64,000 nt of DNA from positions 4,672,001 through 4,736,000 of the forward strand of contig CBDCJO010000002.1 of the NCBI GenBank assembly GCA_965217865.1, read 5' to 3'. Positions 20,355-29,189 of this stretch are shown piece by piece. A model generated the notes under the pieces. The model did no database searches and was not told the origin of the DNA. It worked only from the letters and a program-made list of their open reading frames with translations. Source of the DNA: Candidatus Latescibacterota bacterium. GTDB taxonomy: Bacteria; Latescibacterota; UBA2968; SICM01. Position numbers and translations under genes: made by a program. Numbering within the stretch: position 1 is the first letter of the stretch; each line of letters opens with the position of its first letter.

Positions 20355-21880
20355 CAGCCTGTTGAAAAAGTGCGTTTATGCCAAGATGACTGTTGTCTTT
20401 CCTTGTGGTTTGGTCCTATGATATATCAGGTTCAAACTGAGAAGGGAGGACGAGCAAATGGCAATGGGAAAACGAGGACGACAGAGACAGGAAAACCTGT
20501 TCATCGCATCGAACACTTTGGTGAAATCTCCGGGTCATCCGTTCTACGAGAAGCTGAATCAGGTATTGGGGGCGAACGGCTTCGACGAGTTCGTCGAGGG
20601 GCTTTGCCAGCGGTATTACGCTCCTCATATGGGTCGCAAGGGCATTCCGCCCGGGGTTTATTTTCGGATGCTTTTGATTGGGTATTTCGAGGGACTTGAT
20701 TCGGAACGTGGGATCGAATGGCGTGTATCTGACTCGCTGACGTTGCGCCGGTTTTTGGGGTATGCCCTTGACGAACAGACCCCGGATCATTCCAGCCTGT
20801 CTCGCATCCGGCATCGGCTTCCCTTGGAAGTTCACGAAGCGGTTTTCAAGTGGATCCTGAGGGTCTTGTGCAAAGCGGGTCTGGTGAAGGGGAAGACGTT
20901 GGGCGTGGATGCTACGACACTGGAGGCCAACGCCGCGATGCGCAGCATTGTACGCCGTGACACGGGTGAAGGCTACCAGGCATTCCTTGAGAATCTGGCC
21001 AAGGCCTCGGGCATTGAAACGCCTACCCGCGAGGACTTGTCCAAGATCGATAAGAAGCGACCGAAGAAGGGATCGAACCAGGACTGGGAGCACCCGCACG
21101 ACCCGGATGCCAAGATCGCTAAGATGAAGGACGGTCGCACGCACATGGCGCACAAGGTGGAGCACGCGGTGGATCTGGACACCAATGCCATTGTGGCAGT
21201 GGCGTTGTCGGGAGCAGATGAAGGAGATACCGAGTCGTTGCCCTGGACGCTGCTCGAGGCGCAGCTCAATCTCAAGCAGGTCGCGAAGGACGAAAAAGCT
21301 GCCAAACGTTTGCACAGACAGCGTATACGGGAGGTGGTTGCGGACAAAGGATATCATAGCAACGATGTATTGACCAGTCTGAAGCAAGGCGGCATCCGGA
21401 GTTACATTTCAGAACCGGATCGGGGACGCCGCAAGTGGAACGGCCGACGAGATGAGCAGGCCGCGGTATATGCGAATCGACGCCGGATCAAGGGAGATCG
21501 CGGCAAGGCCTTGCGCCGAAGTCGTGCAGAACGGGTGGAAAGAACCATCGCTCACACATATGATACCGGTGGCATGCGCAGGTTGCACTTGAGAGACCGC
21601 GGCAATATCCTCAAGCGTTTGCTGATCCACATCGGGGGCTGCAACCTGGCTCTGCTCATGCGCAAAGTGATGGGCGTAGGTACTCCGAAGGCCCTCCAGG
21701 ACCTGGCCAAGGCCTTGCAGCGTCTACTGCTCGTCCTACAATCACGTTTGCTGCCCTCGGTCACCTTTTTAACCTCTTATCAGCGTCTCCTGCTCAATCT
21801 CCTTACCTTGATTTATCTGACCCGCACTCCAGGCGTCTTTTCCGTTTATGTGCGTTGAAAGGTAGTTCTTCAACGGGCTG
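20355..21880 (+). mobile_element. IS1182-like insertion sequence, copy 2 (1526 bp)
   Basis: Same terminal inverted repeats; flanked by CTAG direct repeats (20351-20354 and 21881-21884); reverse complement of copy 1. Confidence 0.92.
20458..21858 (+). CDS. DDE transposase, copy 2
   Basis: 466 aa, identical to copy 1 except EAQLN versus EAPLN. Confidence 0.93.
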   Translation: MAMGKRGRQRQENLFIASNTLVKSPGHPFYEKLNQVLGANGFDEFVEGLCQRYYAPHMGRKGIPPGVYFRMLLIGYFEGLDSERGIEWRVSDSLTLRRFLGYALDEQTPDHSSLSRIRHRLPLEVHEAVFKWILRVLCKAGLVKGKTLGVDATTLEANAAMRSIVRRDTGEGYQAFLENLAKASGIETPTREDLSKIDKKRPKKGSNQDWEHPHDPDAKIAKMKDGRTHMAHKVEHAVDLDTNAIVAVALSGADEGDTESLPWTLLEAQLNLKQVAKDEKAAKRLHRQRIREVVADKGYHSNDVLTSLKQGGIRSYISEPDRGRRKWNGRRDEQAAVYANRRRIKGDRGKALRRSRAERVERTIAHTYDTGGMRRLHLRDRGNILKRLLIHIGGCNLALLMRKVMGVGTPKALQDLAKALQRLLLVLQSRLLPSVTFLTSYQRLLLNLLTLIYLTRTPGVFSVYVR

Positions 21881-25738: not shown

Positions 25739-26356
25739 TCAACCCGGCTTCCGATCTATCAACGTTCGGAGCTCGAGGTAGTATTCAAGTTTTCGATCTC
25801 GAGGGATGGGAAGGGCCCGACTGGTGGAAGGGGCGAGGTAAACAGGTACCCCGCTGAGGCCCTCTTCCTGAAGTCCATAGGTACACGGCCGGTTGAGGAT
25901 TACCCCATAGCCGCTCTTACCGTTGAAACAGACGATCCGCGGAAGAGCCTCCCGGATCTTTTCTTTGAGAGCTTGGAAGTTCGTCCGGAATTCTCCCGGG
26001 GATAGGTCTCCGACACCGGGCGTGGATCGTTTGACCATGTCTGTGAGTCCTAGATTGTAGTTGAGAATCAGGGCGTCTTCTTCGGGTTTGAGCCTGCGGT
26101 CTGTGAACCCCGATTCAAAAAGGAAAGGCCAAAACTGGTTTCCCCTTCCGGCATAGTAATGGCCCAGAAGGGCTGACCGGGTCCCGGGATTCAACCCGAC
26201 AAAGACGACATCGAGCCCGGATTTGAGGTAATCGGGGAGCAATGAACGATCGAAGTGTGGTATCTGTTGGAGGGGATGACTACGGGATTCGCTGCTGTCG
26301 TTTCTTAACCTTGTGCGGGGTTTCACGATCCGGTTGCCCGTAAAATACACCCGCAA
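25739..26356 (-). CDS. mug: G/U mismatch-specific DNA glycosylase (start codon uncertain)
   Basis: FVGLNPG, GHYYAGRGNQFW, GLTDMVKR, PSTS. Confidence 0.88.
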   Translation of the reverse strand: MRVYFTGNRIVKPRTRLRNDSSESRSHPLQQIPHFDRSLLPDYLKSGLDVVFVGLNPGTRSALLGHYYAGRGNQFWPFLFESGFTDRRLKPEEDALILNYNLGLTDMVKRSTPGVGDLSPGEFRTNFQALKEKIREALPRIVCFNGKSGYGVILNRPCTYGLQEEGLSGVPVYLAPSTSRALPIPRDRKLEYYLELRTLIDRKPG

Positions 26357-26399
26357 ATCGCCTGTGTCAATTGACTTTTCCAGTTGATATTACTAAATT
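26342..26399. promoter_or_regulatory. Back-to-back divergent sigma70 promoters for mug and the rsmI operon
   Basis: Minus strand TTGACA(26370-26365)-N17-TATTTT; plus strand TTGACT(26371-26376)-N17-TAAATT. The abutting -35 boxes form the palindrome GTCAATTGAC. Confidence 0.6.
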
Positions 26400-26427
26400 T
26401 ATTCGAACTGATCGGATCAACGACTCG

Positions 26428-27171
26428 ATGGGCAATCCCGTAAAACAAAAAGAAGCGTTGGGGACACTGTTTGCGGTGGCCACCCCGATTGGAAATCTCG
26501 AGGATATCACTTATCGTGCTGTTCGCACGTTGAGCCAAGTCGATGCCTTAGCCTGTGAGGATACCCGTTATACACGAAGGATCTTTGAGAGATACCGGAT
26601 CTCCAAACCCGGGAAGGTATTCTCGTATCACGAGCATAACGAAGAAAGAGCCGGCACGCGGATCGTTGGTTTGTTGAGGGATGGTCGTTCGGTGGCGCTG
26701 TGTACGGACAGCGGATTTCCCGGCATTAGCGATCCCGGCTACCGCATCATATCGAAGTGTCTCGATGCCGGAATTCCCGTGGAGGTCATCCCCGGAGGGG
26801 GGGCGGTTTCCGCTGCTCTCCTGAACTCCGGCTTGCCAACATCGAGTTATACCTTCAAAGGATTTCCCCCGAGGAAACCCGGTCCCCAAATCAGGTTTCT
26901 GGAGATGGAGCAAGACATGCCCCACACGATGGTGTTGTTTGAGTCGCCTCATCGTGTCGGGAGATTATTGAGGAATGCGCTTGATGTGCTGGGAAATAGA
27001 AAAGCGGCCGTCTGCATCGAAATGACGAAGAAATTCGAAGAGATTCACAGAGGGTTCCTCGGAGAGCTTTCGGATCGATTTCGAGACACCAAGATCAGGG
27101 GAGAGGTGACGGTGGTCATCGCCGGAAAACACCCCAAATTTATTAAACAGGATGAACCTGATGTTTCTTAG
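26428..27171 (+). CDS. rsmI: 16S rRNA (cytidine(1402)-2'-O)-methyltransferase
   Basis: VATPIGNLEDITYRA, ACEDTR, GFPGISDPG, FESPHR, EMTKKFEE. Confidence 0.95.
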   Translation: MGNPVKQKEALGTLFAVATPIGNLEDITYRAVRTLSQVDALACEDTRYTRRIFERYRISKPGKVFSYHEHNEERAGTRIVGLLRDGRSVALCTDSGFPGISDPGYRIISKCLDAGIPVEVIPGGGAVSAALLNSGLPTSSYTFKGFPPRKPGPQIRFLEMEQDMPHTMVLFESPHRVGRLLRNALDVLGNRKAAVCIEMTKKFEEIHRGFLGELSDRFRDTKIRGEVTVVIAGKHPKFIKQDEPDVS

Positions 27172-27225
27172 TGGAAAAAGGAGGCCTTTCGGAGTTCGGT
27201 TTTTGTTGGGCTCTTTGGGATTTTC

Positions 27226-28332
27226 GTGAAGCGGCTTCGGACCAATCATGGCGTTCTTTCCCTCCCGTCCTTTCTACCCGACGCCACCAGGGCGGTCGTA
27301 AAATCCCTGGATGCCTCGGACCTCACCGAATGCGGTGTGAAGGGCCTCGTGGTCAACACGCTGCATCTCTCATCTCACCCTGGAACCTCTTTGATCTCCA
27401 AACAGGGAGGCGTCCATCGGTTCATGGGGTGGGATAACCCCATCATCTCAGACTCGGGGGGATACCAGGTCTATTCCTTAATATCTGAATCTCCGAAGTC
27501 GGGGGGGATCACCAGCAGGGGGTTCACATATCGCCTTGGGGGTGGCGTCAAAAAGGTCCTGACCCCCGAAAACTGCATCCAGAAACAGTGTCAAATCGGA
27601 TCGGATATCCTGGTTTGTCTGGACCATTGTACGCACCCGGACGATCCGAGGGAACTTCAGGAAACGAGCGTCAACAACACGGTCGAATGGGCCCGAAGAT
27701 GCAAGGCGGCGTTTCAGAAGAGGATGGAACAGAACCCTCCCGACGGATCGCCCCCTCTGATTTTTGCTGTCATCCAGGGGGGATCGGATCCCGACTTGAG
27801 GCGTTCTTGCTTTGAGCGGTTGTTGGAGATCGGTTTCGATGGGTACGGATACGGAGGGTGGCCGATCGATTCCAAGGGAAGACTCTTGGATATGCTCGAA
27901 TTCGTTGCGGGATTGATCCCGAACGAGTTTCCGAAACACGCTCTCGGGGTGGGCAAACCCGAAAACCTGGTACGCGCTTTCACGATGGGATATAACCTTT
28001 TCGATTGCGCGATTCCCACCCGCGATGCTCGCCACAAGCGGTTATATGTGTTTAACGAGGGATCGGATAATAAAGATCGGGACCGGGATTCTTTCTTCCA
28101 TCCCTTTTTCATCTCGGATAAGAGATATGTTCGGGATGGTCGGCCCATCGATGAGCGATGCAAATGTGTGTGTTGTCGTCGCTACTCGCGGTCTTATCTC
28201 CACCATCTTTTCAAGATTCGAGATTCCCTTGCACCCCGCCTTGCCACGATGCACAATTTGACCTTTTACACCGATCTGTTAAAAAAACTGGCGAAATCTC
28301 AAAAACCTGAGAGATCAAAACCTCAATTATAA
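27226..28332 (+). CDS. tRNA-guanine transglycosylase family protein (divergent TGT paralog)
   Basis: DSGGYQ, LDHC, QGG, FDCAIPTRDARH, Zn site CKCVCC...HNL; atypical GGWPI loop. Confidence 0.88.
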   Translation: MKRLRTNHGVLSLPSFLPDATRAVVKSLDASDLTECGVKGLVVNTLHLSSHPGTSLISKQGGVHRFMGWDNPIISDSGGYQVYSLISESPKSGGITSRGFTYRLGGGVKKVLTPENCIQKQCQIGSDILVCLDHCTHPDDPRELQETSVNNTVEWARRCKAAFQKRMEQNPPDGSPPLIFAVIQGGSDPDLRRSCFERLLEIGFDGYGYGGWPIDSKGRLLDMLEFVAGLIPNEFPKHALGVGKPENLVRAFTMGYNLFDCAIPTRDARHKRLYVFNEGSDNKDRDRDSFFHPFFISDKRYVRDGRPIDERCKCVCCRRYSRSYLHHLFKIRDSLAPRLATMHNLTFYTDLLKKLAKSQKPERSKPQL

Positions 28333-28337
28333 AACGG

Positions 28338-29189
28338 GTGGATATCTCTTTACGCGCTTCAACCCACAGATCATGTATGGAGCAAAGCGTCCCTCACCAG
28401 ATGGTAAGCGACCTTCGGAGGACCCGAAAATACCGAGAACTATGTGAGGACACGCTTTATCGTGCGGCTTCCTGGGCTCTGATGCGTCACAAAACACCGA
28501 AGGAGGCTCTGAAGGCCGCCAAACGCAAACTTCATCAAGTATACGGGGCCTATTTGAACGGGATCGATTTCGGGAAGTTAGAGGACTGGATCGATAACCT
28601 GTCCTCCTCATCTTCTCAATCCTCCCTTCGAGAAACCTGCCTCCGGATCCTCGATTGCCAGACCTCCACGGCAGAACGGGTCCCAATTCTCGACTCGTGT
28701 TTTTCCGACCTTTTCCGGGAAACGGGTGAGCCGACGAGCATCCTGGACCTGGCGTGTGGGCTTAATCCGTTTGCCTTGCCGTGGATGGGCGTTTCCCCGA
28801 ATATGTCGTATTTCGCCTGGGATGTCGATAAACGGTTGATTTCAGCGACGAACGAATTTTTTATTCGTACGGGTCGGCCTCCCACGGCTGAGTTCCTGGA
28901 CGTCCTGGCCTCACCCCTGGACCTGCGCGTGGACGTGGTTTTCCTTCTCAAGTCGCTCCCCTTTCTGGAACAACAGGAAAAATGGTTCGGTGCCCGGTTG
29001 CTTCGTGAGGCGAACGCCCGGTTTGCGGTGATATCTTTTCCGGCCCGGTCGATCGGAGGGAGAGACAAAGGCATGGTGAGGCACTATGAACGGTTTATGG
29101 AGAAAATGACCGGGGAGCTCGGTTTATCAGTGAGCAAACATGTGTATCCGACGGAAACCTTCTACGCCTGCAACCTCGACGGCCGATAA
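28338..29189 (+). CDS. FmrO/Sgm/ArmA/Rmt-family 16S rRNA (guanine(1405)-N7)-methyltransferase homolog (alternative start 28377)
   Basis: KRKLHQVYGAY, STAERVPILD, ILDLACGLNPFA, LLKSLPFLEQQ, SFPARSIGGRDKGM match the family motifs. Confidence 0.88.
   Translation: MDISLRASTHRSCMEQSVPHQMVSDLRRTRKYRELCEDTLYRAASWALMRHKTPKEALKAAKRKLHQVYGAYLNGIDFGKLEDWIDNLSSSSSQSSLRETCLRILDCQTSTAERVPILDSCFSDLFRETGEPTSILDLACGLNPFALPWMGVSPNMSYFAWDVDKRLISATNEFFIRTGRPPTAEFLDVLASPLDLRVDVVFLLKSLPFLEQQEKWFGARLLREANARFAVISFPARSIGGRDKGMVRHYERFMEKMTGELGLSVSKHVYPTETFYACNLDGR

Follow-up and report, generated by a model that had tools for sequence, protein, structure and literature searches.

A transglycosylase subfamily coupled to Rmt-type 16S rRNA methyltransferases and its possible role in rRNA base exchange

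A three-gene locus in a Latescibacterota genome

The window analysed here is a 64,000-nucleotide stretch (contig CBDCJO010000002.1, positions 4,672,001 to 4,736,000, forward strand) of a Candidatus Latescibacterota genome (assembly GCA_965217865.1). It carries three intact, co-oriented open reading frames (ORFs), rsmI, tgt and rmt, whose coordinates agree with those of an original prediction and whose products are assigned by profile scores to the RsmI, tRNA-guanine transglycosylase (TGT) and FmrO/Rmt families (Table 1). RsmI forms 2′-O-methylcytidine at position 1402 of 16S rRNA (Cm1402), Rmt enzymes form N7-methylguanosine at position 1405 (m7G1405), and TGTs exchange bases through a covalent aspartate intermediate. 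The TGT of this locus belongs to a widespread, uncharacterised subfamily coupled to Rmt, which would establish a further class of modification in rRNA should an rRNA target hold.

Table 1. Genes of the locus in window coordinates
Feature	Position	Strand	Profile support
rsmI, 16S C1402 2′-O-methyltransferase	26371..27171	+	TIGR00096 189 bits, cut-off 168
tgt, GGWP-pocket TGT of the Rmt/RsmI-linked clade, 368 aa	27226..28332	+	PF01702
rmt, Rmt/FmrO-family 16S m7G1405 methyltransferase homologue	28338..29189	+	PF07091 E 2.6e-38
mug, Mug/UDG-family glycosylase, divergent neighbour outside the conserved unit	25739..26356	-	PF03167

The host genome (6.4 Mb, 96% complete) was found to hold single copies of rsmI (one tblastn match), rmt, rsmH and the 16S gene, the last with G1405 and A1408. 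A canonical tgt, whose presence the original prediction had left to be checked, lies elsewhere (C2:2258249-2259331) next to yajC- and fmt-like ORFs. The operon TGT is 34% identical to its product and scores 313 bits against 503 in Pfam. Genes for queA and queC-like proteins are present; the latter are two in tandem (G000:C1:23740-25140), each reaching or exceeding the TIGR00364 cut-off, and two copies also occur in several relatives from the phylum. Self-protection of an antibiotic producer, one of the roles first suggested, is unsupported, because the genome has a single dehydroquinate (DHQ) synthase-family gene (one PF01761 match) and no second copy resembling 2-deoxy-scyllo-inosose (DOI) synthase.

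The gap between rsmI and tgt is 54 nt. The 5-nt gap reported between tgt and rmt requires a GTG start at 28338 and becomes 44 nt from the ATG at 28377, the likely start judging by the 270-aa database protein (P0001); rsmI probably starts at ATG 26428. A single shared promoter gains no support: three promoter-like sites were detected against 3.2 expected by chance, the minus-strand site whose end is at 26342 points to the divergent mug, and promoter and terminator scans of the locus stayed at chance level. Short-read run X1, which may be the source sample, recovers the entire 3 kb with 0 differences, and runs X2 and X5 recover the rmt gene, also with 0 differences. GC content at third codon positions (0.59-0.64; genome quartiles 0.62-0.69) is low-normal and not conclusive on recent acquisition. 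A 466-aa ORF judged by reading to be transposase-like (window 20458-21858) lies 4.5 kb upstream and is not adjacent to the operon. A link to DNA repair through mug was considered and discarded, as mug was found in 0 of 65 related loci.

Conservation of the TGT-Rmt pairing

The original prediction proposed that this TGT and Rmt may form an undescribed system, to be refuted by a pairing not conserved elsewhere together with a TGT present as the only copy; neither outcome was observed. Gene neighbourhoods examined from the TGT side, from the Rmt side and in a sample of the host phylum show the pairing to be conserved across genomes. A scan of species genomes from the TGT yielded 100 candidate stretches and 65 loci, of which 63 carry a GG-(W/F/Y)-P motif and two are canonical; about 10 of the 63 are close relatives. 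Rmt is encoded within the locus in 49 of these 63, rsmI in 23 and rsmH in four. The 14 loci without Rmt comprise three at a contig edge, seven from Patescibacteria (the Candidate Phyla Radiation, CPR) or DPANN archaea and four from Clostridia. Genome-wide searches covered 50 of the 63 genomes, with nine close relatives and four short contigs excluded. FmrO was detected somewhere in all 43 carriers outside CPR and DPANN, compared with 0 of 14 controls. A further TGT match, partial in some genomes, is present in 39 of the 43. Where the two genes are unlinked they still co-occur, in 5/5 non-CPR genomes of this set and in 3/3 DPANN genomes; no Rmt was found in the four CPR genomes among the 50. 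Genome G013 is a mixed bin (35 16S matches) and is given little weight.

Within the host phylum, Rmt was found in 16 of 151 genomes, with the clade TGT directly upstream in the same 16 and neither gene in the other 135. Clade TGTs were assigned here at E<=6e-126; the next-best TGT (2.6e-103, G061) was classed as canonical solely on the gap in scores. These carriers represent 10 genera of one class, so they are kin rather than independent cases, and a canonical second tgt is present in 14 of them. Among 300 Clostridia genomes, Rmt occurs in two and the TGT adjoins it in both.

The reverse search, seeded with Rmt in metagenomes, gave 178 loci, of which the best 80 were taken (some are duplicates). 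The clade TGT is present in 71 of these 80, and in 30/30 where 1.5 kb is available on both sides. Of the nine without it, five end within 230 nt upstream and four have long upstream DNA. These loci also hold rsmI (34/80), rsmH (5/80) or a second Rmt (6/80); such helix-44 enzyme genes adjoin 0 of 31 canonical tgt loci within flanks of about 1.5 kb. The second Rmt paralogue (L175, L188, L191, L198, L201, L217) bears a distinct K-M-Y-H-C-L-E motif, is arranged as rsmH-rmt′-rsmI-tgt-rmt in four loci, and may have a different target. A metagenome scan seeded by a single Rmt protein returned 33 stretches and no relatives.

TGT and Rmt distances over 28 genomes correlate (rho 0.54; partial 0.53 after controlling for canonical tgt), whereas the partial correlation of Rmt with canonical tgt is 0.00. 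The two activities are fused in one 628-aa TGT-FmrO protein (P0192); a search for fusions among longer proteins, itself a weak test, found none. A predicted TGT-Rmt complex scored 0.11 (mark 0.32) and is not used as evidence.

Patescibacteria follow a looser pattern. From 201 genomes, 40 matched at E<=1e-108 and the best 30 were examined, 18 of them in the clade and 12 outside it. Nine of the 18 clade TGT genes abut an rRNA methyltransferase gene (rsmI-like in five, Rmt in two, RsmG and SpoU in one each), and no such neighbour was seen in the 12 non-clade loci. Weak Rmt-like matches in two single-contig CPR genomes (E 1e-3 to 1e-6) look like generic methyltransferases and were set aside. All three DPANN archaea encode divergent FmrO/Rmt homologues away from the TGT (L105:4956-5783, L106:358-1233, L113:825-1826). 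Each adjoins an ORF for a DRG-type GTPase, checked by Pfam for L105 only. In the 16S gene of genome G031 (L136), conserved sequence departs right after position 1402, the RsmI site, probably at an intron or insertion.

The clade also reaches clinical plasmids, where its TGT gene precedes resistance methyltransferase genes in the cassettes rsmH-tgt-rmtG-rsmI′, tgt-rmtD1, tgt-phosphoesterase-rmtB2 and, cut short, tgt-rmtE2, with 46-51% identity to the operon TGT. In the cassettes of rmtD1, rmtG and rmtB2 the tgt gene is full-length and its motifs are intact, whereas one rmtE plasmid has no tgt annotated. In the Providencia plasmids the gene between tgt and rmtB2 encodes a metallophosphoesterase (L069:6155-6964). 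An uncultured Clostridia chromosome (L021:2900-8517) carries rsmH-tgt-rmt...rsmI; compared with the rmtD1 pair (reference cassette L070, plasmid NZ_KT935445.1), its TGT is 92% and its Rmt 83% identical; identities between the rmtG cassette and this operon are 78% and 59%, respectively. This Clostridia lineage is a likely reservoir of the rmtD1 cassette. A cultured carrier of the module is Anaerobacterium chartisolvens DSM 27016 (L045).

The coupling itself is well supported by genomics, and the claim that it was undescribed needs qualification. One paper describes rmtG as sharing an operon with rsmH, tgt and rsmL (PMC9311965), and another mentions the tRNA ribosyltransferase gene upstream (PMC3904158), with no function given for it in the available text of either. 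The open-access main texts searched contained no study of this TGT clade, nor any TGT with in vivo activity on rRNA.

Catalytic core, pocket and RNA-facing surfaces

The operon TGT scores just below the TIGR00430 cut-off (301.8 against 306.75) and has the hallmarks of its superfamily. It combines a TIM barrel with the equivalents of Asp102 and Asp280, Asp156, Gln203 and Gly230 (Zymomonas mobilis numbering) and a C-x-C-x2-C...H zinc site. Catalytic D76, D133 and D260 and zinc ligands C312, C314, C317 and H343 are intact, and the predicted model (mean predicted local distance difference test 93.7) superposes on Z. mobilis TGT with a template-modelling score of 0.85. All 42 aligned rows share Asp102, Asp156, Cys158, Gln203, Gly230, Asp280, Arg286, Arg289 and the zinc ligands without exception. 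The plain reading of this conservation is that clade TGTs are active enzymes. Trees recover the clade as monophyletic with support 100.

The base-binding pocket departs from the canonical one. Z. mobilis Leu231-Ala232 is replaced by Trp-Pro, Gly234-Glu235 is lost and Val45 becomes Asp. The peptide switch of enzymes that serve queuosine at tRNA position 34 (Q34), Leu231-Ala/Ser232-Val233-Gly234-Glu235, reads W-P-I-D-S in the operon TGT. Proline occupies position 232 in 42/42 rows and, in a separate count, in 35/35 non-CPR clade rows, and Glu235 is present in 37/37 canonical rows. In Z. mobilis TGT this peptide, which is backed by Glu235, flips, such that the Ala232 NH contacts guanine N7 via water or the Leu231 carbonyl contacts preQ1 (PMC3660597). 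Which base is chosen depends on positions 231/232 (PMC5699537). Proline removes the NH, and a 7-substituted base would therefore be favoured. Queuine-inserting, eukaryote-type TGTs have Gly in place of Val233 and Val in place of Cys158 (PMC5699537), where the operon TGT has Ile214 and Cys135; the retained Cys158 and bulky residue 233 argue against queuine. The operon TGT likewise lacks the Val197/Val198-type pocket and the family score of archaeal TGT and DpdA.

Taken alone, this pocket neither indicates an m7G substrate nor excludes tRNA G34, because W-P-pocket outgroup TGTs are sole copies with queA (4/4), which suggests that such a pocket can serve preQ1 insertion at G34 of GUN tRNAs. Val45 to Asp together with Trp-Pro was tried as a marker of m7G and dropped: queA-linked outgroups share both, so the combination is not diagnostic. 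Differences on the RNA-facing side are found within the clade, whose members lack SHxDG, carry an insert of about 15 residues following R269 (Arg289 in Z. mobilis) and have a shortened C-terminal helix; in the queA-linked outgroups the tRNA-type S/D residues and the short loop remain. SHxDG, the insert region and the C-terminus presumably have roles in tRNA binding. We read this pattern as a Trp-Pro pocket probably inherited from preQ1-inserting ancestors, with an RNA-binding surface that changed within the clade. Several Patescibacteria (L244-L247, L252, L254, L255) carry sole-copy, queA-linked TGTs with W-P or F-V pockets and without Glu235, which probably act on tRNA and represent a pocket type not yet described.

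The partner methyltransferase passes the PF07091 cut-off and scores 217.7 against the NF000466 cut-off of 250. Its best solved match is Sgm (E 5e-43). The S-adenosylmethionine-binding acids and Lys192 are kept (D124, D149, D175, K192, along with S97 and R101).

A candidate base exchange, its rivals and known systems

The N7-methylated guanosine has a labile glycosidic bond, and this property underlies the mechanism proposed for the module. RsmI would methylate C1402 in helix 44 to Cm1402, and the Rmt homologue would methylate N7 of 16S G1405. The clade TGT could then act after Rmt at the same site, cleaving the weakened glycosidic bond of m7G1405 and inserting a preQ1-type 7-deazaguanine, so that the decoding site would be left with a 7-substituted base that is both stable and cationic. 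All variants taken together, the TGT target is on balance probably rRNA, namely 16S helix 44; the recurrent helix-44 enzyme neighbours, the altered RNA-facing surfaces and, in Patescibacteria, the adjoining rRNA methyltransferase genes and the scarcity of queA speak for such a target. The complete chain, in which Rmt-made m7G1405 is swapped for a preQ1-type base, is put forward tentatively as the best explanation. It accords with the coupling and the fusion, with the pocket, and with the fact that resistance cassettes still carry an intact tgt. Its wider form is equally tentative: an enzyme-exchanged rRNA base in several bacterial phyla and DPANN, the Arm/Rmt mark as a stranded intermediate of a two-step pathway, and Clostridia as the source of rmtD-type cassettes. 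If this is true, resistance through clinical Rmt enzymes would represent a single stage of a native pathway, excised by mobile elements. The module bears on the origin and native job of Arm/Rmt methylases outside antibiotic producers. The m7G1405 mark has been listed as an actinomycete and plasmid trait (PMC13602947). With two or three small genes and one nucleotide, it is directly testable.

Several observations weigh against the complete chain. The 16S context of position 1405 is C-G-U rather than the U-G-U hairpin loop known for TGT; the canonical enzyme needs U-G-U in a hairpin loop, although it accepts an mRNA in vitro (PMC1950534). His95 of the HxST motif, present in 248 of 267 homologues and in relatives 90-91% identical to this Rmt, is Gln here, and Cys158 is Phe or Tyr in nine of 18 CPR clade members. 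Rmt was found, adjacent to tgt, in two of the 18 Patescibacteria clade genomes and not in the other 16, and three of five Patescibacteria Rmt loci have no adjoining TGT, so each gene can occur without the other. Most CPR and DPANN carriers are without queC and yhhQ, which leaves preQ1 supply there unexplained; enrichment of yhhQ/Vut_1 was not seen in CPR carriers (1/18 vs 24/183). Both the CPR members without Rmt and their preQ1 supply are at odds with the chain. On plasmids, 1591 records carry Rmt/ArmA, and the clade accounts for 15 of the 40 TGT matches listed (68 in all), an imbalance from which it follows that Rmt works alone.

Further points against it favour instead a TGT that would still be a tRNA G34 enzyme inserting preQ1, perhaps into a tRNA subset or under stress. 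The clade TGT is the sole TGT found, with queA present, in four non-CPR draft genomes and in three Patescibacteria (G531, G582, G638), to which the queA-bearing W-P outgroups described above add; a GGFVV sister group adjoins queA in 3/3 loci. R266, R269 and K/R26, which we take to act at U35, are retained. Such an enzyme might be kept beside Rmt if Q34 compensated for the errors that m7G1405 ribosomes make in decoding, or if it increased tolerance of aminoglycosides; this too would explain why tgt rides with several resistance genes. Loss of tgt cuts aminoglycoside fitness in Vibrio cholerae and Escherichia coli (PMC13602947), and Rmt enzymes render ribosomes error-prone (PMC12406665). This tRNA function would, however, be mostly redundant with canonical tgt, given the second copies in 39/43 carriers and 14/16 host-phylum genomes. 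No que gene was seen among recurrent neighbours in the 63 and 80 loci, whose clusters were read by eye. Moreover, queA is depleted in CPR carriers (3/18 vs 85/183 others; nominal p 0.02) and was not found in the three DPANN genomes, where the clade member is the only TGT, and the tRNA-type SHxDG surface is lost. A retained tRNA role is about as probable as the complete exchange chain, and likewise less likely than not.

Two other readings keep rRNA as the substrate. TGTs swap guanine for guanine in vitro, and an eraser that takes out m7G1405 and restores plain G would make the methylation reversible and let RsmI reach C1402. Tight TGT-Rmt coupling and the freedom from preQ1 supply speak for such an eraser, as does the report that ArmA blocks RsmI methylation of C1402 (PMC12406665, citing Lioy 2014). 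Yet it is unlikely: three cassettes retain intact tgt, and isolates with 16S methyltransferase genes including rmtG are highly resistant (PMC13388701, the available text of which does not state gene context). In addition, the Pro232 pocket disfavours an incoming guanine, and no Rmt was found in 16/18 CPR carriers. Alternatively, the TGT might itself modify a G in or near helix 44, with Rmt independent or later, for example methylating the inserted base. This order would account for the seven of 16 Rmt-less CPR TGT genes that abut rsmI, rsmG or SpoU genes, and some operons do carry two Rmt paralogues with differing motifs. Outside CPR it does not by itself account for the fusion or for a coupling that is almost strict in both directions, and clinical Rmt enzymes, once cloned, are active in E. 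coli with no clade TGT present (PMC12406665), making it quite unlikely. Least probable of all is an old RNA-modification gene cluster travelling as a block with no functional link. Its patchy spread (two of 300 Clostridia) and the separation of the genes in CPR would suit block transfer, but gene order varies (tgt-rmt, rmt-tgt, rmt-rsmI-tgt), unlinked genes still co-occur and the fusion exists.

Among characterised enzymes, the Z. mobilis Tgt (PDB 1enu/1q2r; TIGR00430) shares with the clade its fold, Asp102/Asp156/Asp280, Gln203, Gly230, Cys158 and the zinc site. The clade stands apart from it in phylogeny, in the W-P pocket, in the lost SHxDG, in the insert of about 15 residues and in shorter ends. 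Unlike canonical Tgt, it is usually a second copy and has rRNA methyltransferase neighbours instead of queA and yajC. DpdA, which acts on DNA, and archaeal TGT, which acts on tRNA G15, are precedents for a TGT paralogue with a changed substrate; the operon TGT matches both families weakly (NF041059 E 6e-4; TIGR00432 94 bits vs 350), and no dpd genes occur among recurrent neighbours of the clade loci.

The operon Rmt homologue resembles the Arm/Rmt/Sgm (FmrO) enzymes in its PF07091 domain, its closest solved structure and its conserved SAM-site residues. It differs from them in falling under the NF000466 cut-off, in the His95 to Gln change, and in its setting, which is chromosomal with no mobile element adjacent and no sign of aminoglycoside synthesis. 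The clinical cassettes are the closest parallel, with a TGT of the same clade and a gene order like that of the host locus. In contrast to that locus they are flanked by insertion sequences and, in the available texts, have been read only as resistance cargo, with tgt assigned no function.

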